NCBI RefSeq assembly: GCF_003334385.1
Contig: NZ_QOWN01000018.1
From: Escherichia coli
GTDB lineage: Bacteria > Pseudomonadota > Gammaproteobacteria > Enterobacterales > Enterobacteriaceae
Strand: one strand, 5' to 3'
DNA length: 64,000 bases
Shown here: positions 57,527 to 64,000 of the stretch, piece by piece
Numbering within the stretch: the first letter of the stretch is position 1
How the letters are laid out: every line of letters starts with the position of its first letter
Made by a program: the position numbers and the translations under genes
The notes under the pieces: generated by a model
Database searches by the model: none
What the model saw: the letters and a program-made list of their open reading frames with translations, nothing else
What the model was told of the DNA's origin: nothing

Positions 57527-57620
57527 TGCACTACGCTTATCAGGCCTGCAAGGGGACGCAATTAATTGAATTTGCGGGTTTTGTGGGCCGGATAAGGCGT
57601 TCGCGCCCCATCCGGCATAA
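57520..57620. repeat. BIME (two REP units) between cobB and ycfZ
   Basis: gcctgatgcactacgcttatcaggc and gggccggataaggcgttcgcgccccatccggc. Confidence 0.8.
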
Positions 57621-57645
57621 TACACGCGCACTTTTCCGGCCTCTT

Positions 57646-58949: not shown

Positions 58950-59996
58950 TTAACGTCCTGCTTTCAGCTTCTGATAATACTCTTCATAAATGCTGCTGGC
59001 TGCGCCAACGTCATTCTGCCATTCGCCATTTTTAATGGTTTCAGCATCCGGGTAGAGTGTTTTATCGTTCGCCACTTCTGGACTTAACAGCTTACGCGCC
59101 GCAAGGTTTGGCGTTGGATAACCGATAGTTTCAGCAACCTGTTTTGCCACATCCGGGCGCAGCAGGAAGTTGATCAATTTCAGCGCGCCTTCTTTGTTTT
59201 TGGCATTTGCCGGGATCGCCAGGCTGTCCATCCAGAAAATGCCGCCTTCTTTCGGCCACACCACGTCAATTGGCGTACCCGCCTGGCGTGCAACGAAAGC
59301 AGAACCGTTCCAGATCATGCCGAGGTTAACTTCGCCTTCCATGTACGGGTTCGCCGGGTTATCGGAGTTAAAGGCTGCCACGTTTGGCATCAGTTTTTTC
59401 AGCTCGTTATATGCAGCTTCAATCTCTTTCGGATCGGTGGTGTTACCGGAGTAGCCCAGCTTACGCAGCGCCATCTGGAACACTTCACGGGCATCGTCGG
59501 TCAACAGCAGGCTGCCTTTGTACTCTGGCTTCCACAGATCGGCCCAGCTGGTGACAGATTTCGGATCCACCGCATCACCGTTAACACCAATCGCCGTCGC
59601 ACCCCAGATATACGGAATGGAGTAGTCGTTATTCGGGTCAAAAGGCTTGTTGAGCATGTCTGGATCGAGATTGCTGAAGTTTGTTAACTTCGACTTGTCG
59701 ATCTTCTGGATCATCCCTTCTTTACGCATTTTATCAACGTAATAGGTTGAAGGAACCACCAGATCATAGGCACCGTCTTTGTATGTTTTCAGCTTGGCGT
59801 ACATGGTTTCGTTCGACTCGTAAGTCGAATAGATAACCTTAATACCGGTTTCTTTGGTGAACTGTTCAAGCAGTCCTGGCGGCACGTACTCGGTCCAGTT
59901 GTAGAAATACAGCGTGTTGTTGTCATCGGCGTGAGCGGCGCTCATGCCCAGTGCCAGAGCACCCGCCGCGAGCAGGTGGCGTGACCATTTTTTCAT
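58950..59996 (-). CDS. potD: spermidine/putrescine ABC transporter periplasmic binding protein PotD
   Basis: 348 aa ORF with signal peptide MKKWSRHLLAAGALALGMSAAHA. Confidence 0.96.
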   Translation of the reverse strand: MKKWSRHLLAAGALALGMSAAHADDNNTLYFYNWTEYVPPGLLEQFTKETGIKVIYSTYESNETMYAKLKTYKDGAYDLVVPSTYYVDKMRKEGMIQKIDKSKLTNFSNLDPDMLNKPFDPNNDYSIPYIWGATAIGVNGDAVDPKSVTSWADLWKPEYKGSLLLTDDAREVFQMALRKLGYSGNTTDPKEIEAAYNELKKLMPNVAAFNSDNPANPYMEGEVNLGMIWNGSAFVARQAGTPIDVVWPKEGGIFWMDSLAIPANAKNKEGALKLINFLLRPDVAKQVAETIGYPTPNLAARKLLSPEVANDKTLYPDAETIKNGEWQNDVGAASSIYEEYYQKLKAGR

Positions 59997-60787
59997 TTAA
60001 CGTCCCCTGTGTTACCTTTCGTTTTATCACGAGCAATAAGCTGGCTGGCAATAACCATCACCAGCGACAGCACCAGTAATATGGTTGCCAGCGCGTTAAC
60101 TTCCGGCGATACGCCGACTTTGACCATCGAATAAATTTTTAACGGCAGAATTTCATAACTTGGTCCGGTGACGAACGAAGAAACTACCACATCGTCCATC
60201 GACAGGGTAAAGCTTAACACCCAGCCCGCCGCCACCGCTGGCATTGCCAGTGGCAGAATGATTTTTCGCAGAATGGTAAATTCGCTGGCACCGAGATCTT
60301 TCGCCGCTTCCAGCATTCGCACGTCAAAACCTTTCAGGCGCGAATACACCGTCACCACCACAAATGGCAGGCAGAAGGTGATATGCGAGAACAGCAGCGA
60401 CCAGAAGCCAAGCTGAATACCCAGCAGCATAAACAGCACCAGCAGCGAAATCGCCATCACGATATCTGGTGACATCATCACCACAAACAGCATTCCGCTA
60501 ACGAACGGCTTACCACGAAAGCGATAACGGTACAGCGCAACTGCCGTCAGTGAACCGATAAGCGTAGCAAACGTCGCCGAAAACACCGCCATTGTTAGTG
60601 AATGCTGCGCTGCCTGTAACAGGCTGTCGTTGTTCATCAGCAGGCTATACCATTTGGTGGTAAAACCCTGCCAGTTGATGCCAAAGCGCGAGCTGTTAAA
60701 GGAGTTCACAATCAAAATAATGATTGGGATATACAGGTACGCGTAGATAGCGGTCATAAAACCGCCGCGAAGCAGTCGACCGATCAT
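59993..60787 (-). CDS. potC: spermidine/putrescine ABC transporter permease PotC
   Basis: 264 aa ORF MIGRLLRGGFMTAIYAYLYIPIIILIVNSF...; 4-bp overlap with potD. Confidence 0.96.
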   Translation of the reverse strand: MIGRLLRGGFMTAIYAYLYIPIIILIVNSFNSSRFGINWQGFTTKWYSLLMNNDSLLQAAQHSLTMAVFSATFATLIGSLTAVALYRYRFRGKPFVSGMLFVVMMSPDIVMAISLLVLFMLLGIQLGFWSLLFSHITFCLPFVVVTVYSRLKGFDVRMLEAAKDLGASEFTILRKIILPLAMPAVAAGWVLSFTLSMDDVVVSSFVTGPSYEILPLKIYSMVKVGVSPEVNALATILLVLSLVMVIASQLIARDKTKGNTGDVK

Positions 60788-60810
60788 TCGAGTTCCACCT
60801 TCTTATTCAT
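60784..60810 (-). pseudogene. potB: potB 3'-terminal remnant (last ~8 codons, ...MNKKVELE-stop overlapping potC ATG); rest of potB replaced by prophage DNA
   Basis: Minus-strand frame upstream of potC reads MNKKVELE then TGA overlapping potC ATG (cgaATGAtc); further upstream the same frame is non-PotB-like and hits a stop at 60904-60906. PotB C-terminus recalled from memory as ...NKKVELE. Confidence 0.5.
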
Positions 60811-60953
60811 AAGGTGGAGCACTTTCAGGATTTTGAATTTATTCAATTTTTTCCTTTCTCCAAAATCTCTCCAAAACTTTTCCCCAAAACAAGGCCACGC
60901 ATTTTACAACACTTTTTTCCTGAGATGGTGACGGATATTCCATATGGTGTTTG
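60788..60953. other. probable attL region (prophage/chromosome junction) containing potB tail, potC RBS and A-tract repeats
   Basis: Interval between int stop codon and potC start; potB identity is lost upstream of ~60810; the core cannot be delimited without attR. Confidence 0.45.
60855..60892. repeat. three phased tccaaaa / ccccaaaa A-tract repeats (~11-13 bp spacing) in the attL arm
   Basis: ctccaaaatctctccaaaacttttccccaaaac; helical-repeat spacing typical of intrinsically bent DNA or arm-type/IHF sites in lambdoid att arms. Confidence 0.4.
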
Positions 60954-62072
60954 TCAAATAACCAACTTAACCCATTCCTGACCTCGAGTATCGTTATAGC
61001 GATCGGTGGTAGCCTGGACTTTATGTCCCAGTAATGTTTTTGTATCGACACCCTGTGCGCGGTACAACCGTTCTGACAGGGAGCGTTGTTCATGAAATGT
61101 TGGCGGTGTTTTTCCTGCTGGTGGAATTATTCCAGCCAGATCTCGCGCTTTGGCGAAGTAATCGCTCAGGTTGTCTTTACTCATCGGTTTTGGTTGTTTC
61201 TGGTGCCTACTATGGATTAGGTATGGACTCAACATTCTGTCCCTGCATCCATCAATAACTTCTTTTAACGATACCCCAATTTCATCGCATCGTAGCGTAA
61301 GAGGTAAGGCCAGACGCATTCCGGTTTTTCCTTGGGTTATATGTAGATGTCCATTCCATACATCTGAAAAACGCATGTGGCAAATGTCATCACGGCGCTG
61401 ACCAGTAACAATCGCAAGAAGCATTGCGTTACGGATAAAGTGTTTTTCTGGCGTTGCATTATAAATTTTTTGCCAGTCTTCCAGGGTGAGTCTGGATCTG
61501 GTCACTTTAGGGATCGGTTTACGGGTAGCCTCCAGAGGATTCCATCCAGGAGGAACTTCTCCCGCATGCTGTGCTTCTTTATAAATATCAACCCATAATC
61601 CGCGATTTACTCTTGCTGTGCTGACCATGTCTTTATCCATCCACTCGTCCAGTATTAATGCAAAGTCTCTTACCTCCAGTTCTTTCAATGGGTGGTTTCC
61701 CAGGCGGGAAACCAGGTATGCAGCCATTCGCACTTTTTCTTTGTGGGTTGTAGCTGCAATGTCTCCATTTTTCAGTCGCGAATCCTGTATTTTCAGATAT
61801 CGATCAACCCATGCCTTTAATCTGATACCCCGACGTTTTGTTGCTGATGGACTTTCATCAATTTTGCGCATGAAATATTCTGCTTCTGCTGCAGCTATTC
61901 GCTGATTGGCTGTTGCAGCGATTTTTTCTGCCTTGACTTTGTCTGTCCCAAGTCCGTGAAATTTTCCAGTCACAGGATTTTTATACTGGTAGTAAACCTT
62001 GCCAGTTCTGCGATCAAACTTTTCGTAAAGAGCTGCTACGTCAGTACTGTTTTTTCGTGGCCTCGGTGACAT
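60954..62072 (-). CDS. int: lambda-family tyrosine integrase
   Basis: 372 aa ORF; C-terminus ...FHEQRSLSERLYRAQGVDTKTLLGHKVQATTDRYNDTRGQEWVKLVI closely parallels lambda Int catalytic tail (H-x-x-R, catalytic Tyr); N-terminal arm-binding-like domain. Confidence 0.9.
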   Translation of the reverse strand: MSPRPRKNSTDVAALYEKFDRRTGKVYYQYKNPVTGKFHGLGTDKVKAEKIAATANQRIAAAEAEYFMRKIDESPSATKRRGIRLKAWVDRYLKIQDSRLKNGDIAATTHKEKVRMAAYLVSRLGNHPLKELEVRDFALILDEWMDKDMVSTARVNRGLWVDIYKEAQHAGEVPPGWNPLEATRKPIPKVTRSRLTLEDWQKIYNATPEKHFIRNAMLLAIVTGQRRDDICHMRFSDVWNGHLHITQGKTGMRLALPLTLRCDEIGVSLKEVIDGCRDRMLSPYLIHSRHQKQPKPMSKDNLSDYFAKARDLAGIIPPAGKTPPTFHEQRSLSERLYRAQGVDTKTLLGHKVQATTDRYNDTRGQEWVKLVI

Positions 62073-62310
62073 GGGTTAAAATCTCCTTCAGTGCGTCATC
62101 ATCGCCAGTATGAATTTCCGGCGCAATTCCAGCTTCACCCGGTCCAACAAAGACTGCGCGGCGATCTATTAGCCAGCGACCACGAATTTTTTGTGGTCTT
62201 GGTACGATGTATCCAAGTTTTCCGTATTTCACCAGGGTAGTGTTTGTTATTGGGAGACTGAACCGCTTAGGTTTCCACTCGTCGAGCGTAATCAGGTACT
62301 GTTCGCTCAT
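62041..62310 (-). CDS. xis: excisionase (Xis-like winged-helix DNA-binding protein)
   Basis: 89 aa from ATG at 62310 (MSEQYLITLDEWKPKRF..., compare lambda Xis MYLTLQEWNARQ); directly upstream of and overlapping int by ~30 nt, as in lambda. Confidence 0.7.
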   Translation of the reverse strand: MSEQYLITLDEWKPKRFSLPITNTTLVKYGKLGYIVPRPQKIRGRWLIDRRAVFVGPGEAGIAPEIHTGDDDALKEILTHVTEATKKQY

Positions 62311-62371
62311 GACCATCACTCCGGAACGCGCCAGTTGCAGAATACCAACTACAACCGGCGACGGTTGAACA

Positions 62372-64000
62372 TTAAAAATCAGCCTGATTCGGGAACAGTT
62401 TTTGCCAGATAGCTGAAACGTATTTTGCCTGGTAACGCGCATCGTGCAGGGCATTATGGCGTTCACCCTCAAATGTGATGACACTTCGAGCATCGAAATC
62501 CATCACCAGCCCCAGGGCAACAATCGTTCTTACATCACGATCATTGGTGTAACGCCACGGGCAGGGGATCTCCTGCCGTTCATATGAACGGCGTAAAATC
62601 ACGTTGTCGAAGTTGGCTCCATTTCCCCAGACCTGAACAAAAAATTCACCGGAGTTTTCGTCGATAAATTCCCGTAATTGCAACAGTGCGTCATCCAACG
62701 GGATTTCATCGGTCAGAATGGCTGATTGTGCTTCCCGTGACTGTTTCAGCCACCACTTAATGGTGTCCCGATCGATGACTCCGCCTGCGGTTTCCAGATC
62801 GATAGTTTTGCTGAATTCTGGCCCCATCTCTCCGGTTGCCGGATCAAAAAACTTACCGGCCAGAGAGTTTATTGGCGCATCAGGATTTTTGCCCATTGTT
62901 TCAAGGTCAATCATCAGATGGTGCCACAACCTGCTGGTGGATGTGATAATGTGATGACCGTTCACCGTAATTAAGGGATCTGCCGTCTCGCCAGTTTCAC
63001 TATCGCTGGCGTGATCCTGAGCGCTGCCAGCATTCTCCTTGTGTGGATGTTCAGCGCCTTCCATTTCCTTCGGATCATTTTCCTGAACTTCAACCTGATT
63101 CTCTTCATCGAATGTTTCTTGGTATGTTGCGTCGCCCATCACCGCGCCACAATCAGGGCAGTTGCCGCCGCCGGTCTGACCGCAGGCGGTGCAGATCTTT
63201 TCCGGTTCCTGTTGCACTACTGGTTCAGGTTGTTTCGTTTCTGGCTCGTTTTGTAACGCATTTGGACTGTTTTGTTCCGCTTTCTGGTCGTTCTGTTCCG
63301 ATTCTTGCTGGTTCTGGTTTACAGAATCGCGGGTTTCAATCCCCTTTACCCATTTCGGATCATTCGGGTCGCTAATCCCTGCAACAAATTCTCCGCGAGA
63401 GGCAGCAAGCAACTTATCGGCGTCAGGCTGGCTGATATTGGCTGCCTGCATAATTTTGTTTACTTCGTCAGCGGTAACTTTTACCGGCTCTGGTTGTGCG
63501 GTCGTGTCAGATGCACCAGTATTTTGTTGTGAACCTGAGTACGTGCCGTTTTTACGTGCGAAGTATTCCTCTTTTGTGATTTCCGTAGCTCCCAAGGCTA
63601 GTGCTTTTTCCAGACCAGAAAGTTTGTTTGCGCGACCGTATTTTTCGCCATCCTTGTCGGTGAAGAGGAAGTAGAACGGCCCCTCACGCTCTACAGATGG
63701 TTCAACTTCCACTTTGCATTCGGTTTTTTCGTTGCCCGGAATTGCCGTTTCCACTGCATCAGTTTCTGGTACTGGCGACGAGAGAGTATCAGTTGCGCTC
63801 TGATTTCTTCCTTCATCTTCAAACACGCCCTTTGTAGTCAGGTATTCAGTAATGTATTTGTTCAGTGCCACAGGGTCTTTGTGAATGTCGATCGGACGTT
63901 CACGGACAAGGCCAAAAATAGTCTGGCGGTCGTAGCGAAGGGCATCAGGCTGTTTGCGCATTGATGCCGAGATACGCTTCCAGTCTTCGCGGTCGTTGTC
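62372..64000 (-). CDS. phage modular protein with C-terminal DEDDh (DnaQ-like) 3'-5' exonuclease domain; N-terminal part runs off window (frame open to 64000)
   Basis: Continuous minus-strand frame with no stop to the window edge; exo motifs I (LMIDLETMG), II (WGNGANFDNV), III (HNALHDARYQA); C-x2-C-x7-C-x2-C zinc ribbon (ICTACGQTGGGNCPDCG); acidic/Gln-rich low-complexity linker. Confidence 0.75.
   Translation of the reverse strand, partial: DNDREDWKRISASMRKQPDALRYDRQTIFGLVRERPIDIHKDPVALNKYITEYLTTKGVFEDEGRNQSATDTLSSPVPETDAVETAIPGNEKTECKVEVEPSVEREGPFYFLFTDKDGEKYGRANKLSGLEKALALGATEITKEEYFARKNGTYSGSQQNTGASDTTAQPEPVKVTADEVNKIMQAANISQPDADKLLAASRGEFVAGISDPNDPKWVKGIETRDSVNQNQQESEQNDQKAEQNSPNALQNEPETKQPEPVVQQEPEKICTACGQTGGGNCPDCGAVMGDATYQETFDEENQVEVQENDPKEMEGAEHPHKENAGSAQDHASDSETGETADPLITVNGHHIITSTSRLWHHLMIDLETMGKNPDAPINSLAGKFFDPATGEMGPEFSKTIDLETAGGVIDRDTIKWWLKQSREAQSAILTDEIPLDDALLQLREFIDENSGEFFVQVWGNGANFDNVILRRSYERQEIPCPWRYTNDRDVRTIVALGLVMDFDARSVITFEGERHNALHDARYQAKYVSAIWQKLFPNQADF

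Follow-up and report, generated by a model that had tools for sequence, protein, structure and literature searches.

Gene content and structure of the potB–potC junction

The locus of interest lies at one end of a 64,000-nucleotide stretch of Escherichia coli DNA (hereafter, the window). Read in the pot sense (i.e., along the minus strand), three prophage genes are followed by a short phage arm, the last few codons of potB, and the genes potC and potD. The end of the window (position 64000) is also the end of draft contig QOWN01000018.1 (GCA_003334385.1), and falls inside the prophage exonuclease gene. The window holds 3.2 kb of prophage DNA; the remainder of the prophage, and the potAB side of the locus, are on other contigs of the draft assembly. 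The features of the region, in window coordinates, are:

58950–59996, minus strand: potD, spermidine-binding periplasmic protein, intact (348-aa open reading frame)
59993–60787, minus strand: potC, permease, intact (264-aa open reading frame)
60784–60797, minus strand: host-only potB remnant, codons V-E-L-E and a TGA overlapping the potC ATG (identical to K-12)
60784–60810, minus strand: junction mini-frame ATG-AAT-AAG-AAG-GTG-GAA-CTC-GAA-TGA (MNKKVELE), in which the A of the ATG is phage-derived
60794–60801 and 60811–60818, no strand assigned: perfect 8-bp inverted repeat, TCCACCTT / AAGGTGGA, on either side of the crossover (repeat search)
60798–60809, no strand assigned: att core of 12 bp, TGAATAAGAAGG in the pot sense and CCTTCTTATTCA on the plus strand (comparison of K-12, near and far junctions)
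60810–60953, minus strand: int-proximal att arm (the P' arm in lambda terms), 144 bp from the core to the int stop codon (no similarity to K-12)
60855–60889, minus strand: three tandem arm-type repeats, TTTTGGRGA in the pot sense, at spacings of 11 and 13 bp (repeat search and motif scan)
60954–62072, minus strand: int, lambda-type tyrosine integrase, 372 aa (lambda Int PDB chains, E = 7.7e-56, residues 26–371)
62041–62310, minus strand: xis, excisionase, 89 aa (phrog_629, E = 4.6e-26)
62372–64000, minus strand: RecE/ExoVIII-type exonuclease gene, cut by the window and contig end (phrog_20376 and phrog_2082)

On the host side, the potD DNA sequence is 100% identical to that of K-12 MG1655, while potC carries a single, synonymous base difference; a preliminary description of this DNA had called potC intact, and this is borne out. 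With so little divergence from K-12, the comparison carries no signal of selection on either gene. The same description proposed an alignment with K-12 potB–potC. Anchored at the potC start, this alignment is perfect through window position 60809 and random from 60810 onward, placing the breakpoint at 60809/60810. Identity with K-12 spans potD, potC and the last seven codons of potB. What is left of potB at the junction is NKKVELE and its stop codon, plus two bases of the Leu codon before them. With the phage base at 60810, this Leu codon becomes an ATG and opens the eight-codon frame MNKKVELE that is also found in the O157:H7 junction alignment. The TGA of the mini-frame (60784–60786) overlaps the potC ATG (60785–60787), and the potB frame is closed upstream by a stop codon at 60904–60906. 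The K-12 alignment and the reading frames thus agree with two further points of the preliminary description: that only about eight potB codons, with a stop overlapping the potC ATG, precede potC, and that the frame further upstream is non-PotB and ends at 60904–60906.

The predicted mini-frame has no Shine-Dalgarno sequence ahead of its ATG. That of potC, AAGAAGGTGG (60794–60803), is retained; the sequence upstream of the potC ATG is that of K-12 up to position 60809, and the ribosome-binding sequence straddles the att core and host DNA, with half in each. Neither Rfam nor tRNA scans of the junction area returned anything relevant. Elsewhere in the window, between cobB and ycfZ (57586–57623, plus strand), there is a sub-threshold match to the Rfam family naRNA4 (32.4 bits, where the gathering score is 59.5), which is most likely a REP-type repeat.

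On the phage side, Int carries an Arm-DNA-bind_1 domain (Pfam PF09003, residues 1–64, E = 1.3e-21) and a Phage_integrase domain (PF00589, E = 1.4e-18). Its catalytic R, K, H-x-x-R, H and Y positions align with those of lambda Int, and the motifs GQR, KTG, TFHExRS, LLGHK and (R/Q)Y(N/R)D are conserved with respect to lambda Int structure 1z1b. The gene had previously been read as a lambda-family integrase pointing toward potC; its length, its position on the minus strand, the lambda Int match and the Pfam domains all accord with this. The xis gene overlaps the start of int by 32 bases. At the position of the truncated exonuclease gene, an 812-aa gene is annotated in related genomes; in other strains, up to nine similar copies of the exonuclease gene are found per genome.

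The junction is common among complete E. coli genomes

A search of 5,426 complete E. coli genomes with an 801-bp query spanning the int–potC junction (coverage of at least 80%) returned 1,579 genomes; a shorter, 301-bp query returned 1,407. The empty site, in which potB and potC are contiguous, was found in 3,800. The insertion is thus present in about 29–30% of complete genomes. Across the 801 bp of the junction, the window is 100% identical to strain SW070917 (NZ_CM129862.1). The entire 3.2-kb phage part has a best match of 95.6% among the complete E. coli genomes, and SW070917 lacks an exact match to a 132-mer taken from the window end.

The frequency of this join bears on a possibility raised in the preliminary description: that host and phage DNA were joined only in the assembly. 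In favour of such a chimeric join, the draft contig breaks off within a prophage gene that exists in multiple copies, and its last 64 kb are the window. However, the contig continues for 3.2 kb past the host–phage join, exactly the same join recurs in the 1,579 complete genomes (long-read assemblies included), and the junction shows the full anatomy of an att site. Checked against complete genomes in this way, an artefact can for all practical purposes be dismissed. The insertion is real and was correctly read; it is also a common, ordinary prophage insertion.

One variant of the arrangement was observed in strain UTAK-23 (L023 4337–4985), where a hypothetical gene and a DUF2335 gene, both oriented away from potC, sit between int and the P' arm. 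In this strain ~1 kb separates int from potC, which remains intact.

The integrase-proximal junction contains a probable 12-bp crossover core

Far junctions were read in five lysogens, all of them genomes other than that of the window: SW070917, O157:H7 6535NalR, O103:H2 CEC12044, Survcare045 and EH031. The 12-bp sequence TGAATAAGAAGG is found in the K-12 attB, at the near junction, and at the far junction of each of these five lysogens, and matches from non-lysogens terminate precisely at its outer edge, position 60809. A direct-repeat core had been predicted at ~60790–60815; the repeat does exist at both prophage ends (in the five other lysogens), but its extent is narrower, at 12 bp (60798–60809). 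Window positions 60798–60809 are very probably where crossover took place at the integrase-proximal end (the core of attL, in lambda terms) of a lambdoid prophage of the Sp6/CP-933N type.

Two sets of repeats accompany the core. Firstly, the P' arm, which is 96–100% conserved in at least 1,407 complete genomes, contains the three tandem TTTTGGRGA repeats. From their sequence, these are presumed to be bound by Int through its N-terminal, arm-binding domain. Secondly, the arms of the perfect inverted repeat around the crossover are candidate core-type Int half-sites, one host-derived and one phage-derived. Perfect symmetry is not a conserved feature of the site, since O157:H7 keeps only the CCTT/AAGG part of the repeat.

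The cores of O157:H7 themselves differ at one base: TGAATAAAAAGG at the near junction (strain Gim1-1, L010) and TGAATAAGAAGG at the far junction (6535NalR, L006), the two being taken from different strains. This single difference could mean that the strands were exchanged to its right, or that a mutation occurred later.

The site was also sought in its unintegrated form. An intact free-phage attP was not found: among 50,697 phage records, megablast with the rebuilt attP gave half-matches only, in prophage-derived records, and an exact 25-mer across attP has no match in IMG/VR.

The far junction provides a substitute PotB tail in related lysogens

In the empty site of K-12, the C-terminus of PotB reads ...RLLNKK-VELE*. 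At the far junctions of the other lysogens, the segment encoding V-E-L-E and the TGA is replaced by phage sequence, and PotB ends are:

SW070917: KK-ATEIDD*
O157:H7 and O103:H2: KK-ATEIDN*
Survcare045: KK-VSELDD*
EH031: KK-VNELDD*

In all five lysogens, potB remains open and is finished by phage DNA, with four residues swapped for six; its reading frame and length are essentially retained. A phage-derived PotB C-terminus at the far junction had been anticipated in the preliminary description, and is seen in each of these related genomes. In the protein collection, 21,269 index blocks list the ATEIDD form of PotB.

A complete element is seen in SW070917, where a lambdoid prophage of 54,761 bp (core to core) is bordered at its far end by the order potA, potB, phage DNA. 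The distal arm of these related prophages contains a fourth copy of TTTTGGRGA, in the same orientation as the other three and 130 bp past the core. This copy is kept in all distal-arm variants, and in the SW070917 arm a perfect IHF consensus, AATCAAATAGTTA, was found beside it.

Every distal-arm variant also carries a hairpin 52–86 nt past the core (SW070917 L003 13308–13341, with equivalents in L005–L008), directly after the new potB stop codon. The stems differ in sequence and in size (14 bp, 8+6 bp or 7 bp). These hairpins are not canonical intrinsic terminators, because they are not followed by a T-run. The hairpin could stop or process potAB transcripts or, in the free phage, int transcripts; it may be an element similar to lambda sib/tI.

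Past the core, the distal arm bears a degenerate likeness to the potB–potC joint, with acidic tail codons and an ATGAT where potC would start. This resemblance suggests that the distal arm may derive from a host site once captured by the phage. Phages that insert at the 3' ends of genes usually carry such a degenerate copy of their target in one arm.

The SW070917 prophage (L003 13440–20302; L002 24428–25774) carries cargo genes near its potB-side end: a YkgJ-family gene co-oriented with potB, a 1,335-aa autotransporter peptidase of the S6 family (SPATE-type), and a YadA-like adhesin. In O157:H7 and O103:H2, espK is found at the position of this cargo. The SW070917 prophage additionally contains an IS4 insertion near the exonuclease gene.

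A model of integration, and comparison with known prophages

Together, the near and far junctions make it highly probable that a prophage of the Sp6/CP-933N type has integrated into the last codons of potB, separating potAB from potCD, by the following scheme. Int, which combines an arm-binding N-terminal domain with a tyrosine-recombinase core, would recombine attP with an attB in the last potB codons; xis lies immediately upstream of int. Of the arm sites proposed for attP, three would stand in tandem on the side of int and a single one, accompanied by an IHF consensus, on the opposite side. Integration would (i) place potC, potD and the potC ribosome-binding site downstream of int, (ii) displace potA and the body of potB by about 48–55 kb, and (iii) give PotB, from the distal arm, a substitute acidic tail and stop codon (VELE being replaced by ATEIDD/N or V[S/N]ELDD), followed by the hairpin. 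The window's own potB would accordingly end in ...CGTTTGCTGAATAAGAAGG, and then continue into a phage arm with a substitute tail. As the displaced PotB tail is resupplied by the phage, all four pot genes would be intact, while no longer forming one transcription unit. This agrees with the earlier view of a prophage that sits at the 3' end of potB and splits the operon, insofar as the junction itself is confirmed; the "entire prophage" of that view lies outside the window, which contains 3.2 kb of it.

The insertion site has been documented repeatedly. Sp6 of strain Sakai is situated between potC and potB (PMC8190617; PMC7609406), prophage J of O104:H4 is listed at "potB/potC" (PMC3486847), a review names potC as an Stx-phage site (PMC8065619), and a potC/potB insertion site is given in the literature for several Stx2 phages. 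In the part of the text of Steyert et al. (2012) that was accessible, a paper cited by others for the potC site, potC is not mentioned. In EDL933, Z1763 (potC) adjoins Z1764 (int) of CP-933N, while Z1830 (potB) lies at the opposite end (PMC4048457 supplement). The element is also mobile: Sp6 excises spontaneously, forms circles, is transferred to K-12, and integrates at the same locus (PMC2669165).

The window prophage shares with Sp6/CP-933N the potB–potC insertion point, the gene order int–xis–ExoVIII and, in an alignment with O157:H7 Gim1-1, the same breakpoint. Its Int is 95% identical (amino acids) to the integrase adjoining potC in Gim1-1, and its P' arm differs from that of O157:H7/EDL933 at five positions (~97% identity). 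Given that the phage part is at most 95.6% identical to any complete genome, the window prophage appears to be another mosaic member of the Sp6/CP-933N type, a comparison made from int, xis and part of exo (3.2 kb). The site, the type of phage and its mobility are already published; with the site listed in the literature and an Int 95% identical to that of O157:H7, the finding is already known. What is refined here is the anatomy at base level: a 12-bp core, a swap of the PotB tail rather than a truncation, and a lambda-like arrangement of the arms. We found no report in the searchable literature of this anatomy (the position of the core in the potC ribosome-binding region, the exchanged PotB tail, and the arm sites).

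The likeness to lambda extends to full-length Int homology, the catalytic residues, the arm-binding domain, an xis that overlaps int, three tandem arm-type repeats on the int side, an arm repeat and IHF consensus on the other side (in related prophages), and a short core that is identical in K-12 attB and at both ends of the five other lysogens. Lambda itself integrates between gal and bio, outside of genes, with a core of 15 bp. Unlike that of lambda, the 12-bp core of the pot site lies inside both a coding sequence and an operon. The hairpin of the pot site is within the distal arm (+52 to +86) and is without a T-run, whereas lambda tI/sib is located further out. A second parallel is provided by phage 21 and e14 in icd, where insertion also occurs inside the 3' end of a gene. 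In that established case, the phage arm gives icd an alternative in-frame 3' end, and so the gene stays functional. Two differences separate the cases. Firstly, the replaced stretch at the pot site (four codons, replaced by six) is much shorter than that in icd. Secondly, icd is monocistronic, whereas potB is the second gene of a four-gene operon, the downstream genes of which lose their promoter upon integration.

Transcription of potC and potD in lysogens

What retains some interest at this locus is the transcription start of potCD in carrier strains. Since the insertion is found in ~29% of genomes, should it alter the stoichiometry or the regulation of PotABCD in any way, the outcome would be a widespread strain difference in polyamine uptake. 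The preliminary description held that potCD must be expressed by read-through from int or from a phage promoter, a statement founded on logic only.

The region ahead of potC was scanned for both terminators and promoters. No terminator was found between int and potC, which are separated by 166 nt: the P' arm folds no better than shuffled sequences (z = -0.65). A consensus scan of positions 60500–62500 gave no sigma-70-like promoter. Upstream of potC, the top-scoring site of a weight-matrix scan, TTGGAG-16-TAAATT (60863–60836), reached 7.6 bits, compared with a median best score of 8.6 bits in shuffled sequences and 12.0 bits for the K-12 potA promoter as a control; no better promoter-like site was found in the pot sense in the rest of the 3.2 kb of phage DNA. 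With no promoter-like site scoring above chance, a start site proximal to potC is a proposal without sequence support.

Published transcript data provide more direction. Strand-specific RNA-seq of EDL933 in LB gave RPKM values of 5 for potA, 11 for potB, 18 for potC and 46 for potD, with a background of 0.14 (PMC4048457). In the same data set, int and xis were at 0 RPKM in each of the 11 conditions, zeros that could partly reflect the handling of repeated prophage reads, on which the paper is silent (PMC4048457). As potC and potD are transcribed while int and xis are at zero, a start close to potC appears more likely than read-through from int, with read-through possibly adding to it upon induction. 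In the uninduced lysogen, potCD would be modestly transcribed from such a start, within either the P' arm or the 3' end of int. Once the prophage is induced, early leftward transcripts could continue through xis and int into potCD, since nothing terminator-like intervenes.

Two alternatives to a start close to potC were weighed against these data. In the first, most potCD mRNA would stem from int transcripts that start at pL or a pI-like promoter and run on, such that spermidine uptake follows early leftward phage transcription. Integration of lambda-type phages shifts the element downstream of int to the other end of the prophage, and in pot-site lysogens it is the distal arm that carries a hairpin, while int and potC are co-oriented, close together and have no terminator-like hairpin between them. 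In EDL933, potC rises under the prophage-inducing "LB-antibiotics" condition (logFC +1.8; PMC4048457). Yet the zero values for int and xis, set against those of potC and potD in LB, argue against read-through from int, as does the lack of any promoter-like site in the pot sense anywhere in the 3.2 kb of phage DNA. Furthermore, the two opposite-oriented genes between int and the P' arm of UTAK-23 coexist with an intact potC. We consider read-through as the main source of potCD transcripts to be rather unlikely.

The second alternative is that potCD is effectively silent in lysogens. This would leave ~30% of E. coli without spermidine uptake by PotABCD, a loss that would have to be tolerated. 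Such tolerance is conceivable, because E. coli makes spermidine itself and PotABCD is non-essential. Moreover, potCD is severed from the potA promoter, with no promoter-like sequence above chance upstream. On the other hand, potC and potD transcripts in EDL933 are more than 100 times background and not below those of potA and potB (PMC4048457), and an EDL933 array found potABCD together to be higher in rpoS mutants (PMC2907692). Both genes are intact in the window, and potC and potD are ordinary, unflagged coding sequences in the lysogen feature tables read. Silence of potCD therefore seems a very improbable outcome.

A more specific form of the preferred reading, a start close to potC, can be put forward tentatively: that a start in the P' arm drives potCD independently of potAB and the potA promoter, could be modulated by Int or IHF bound at the overlapping arm sites, and could be boosted by early leftward read-through upon prophage induction. 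Although we rate this as doubtful in its entirety, it would mean that ~30% of strains carry a host operon rewired by a prophage, instead of a neutral insertion. The base-level anatomy described above gives exact primers and constructs with which to address potCD expression.
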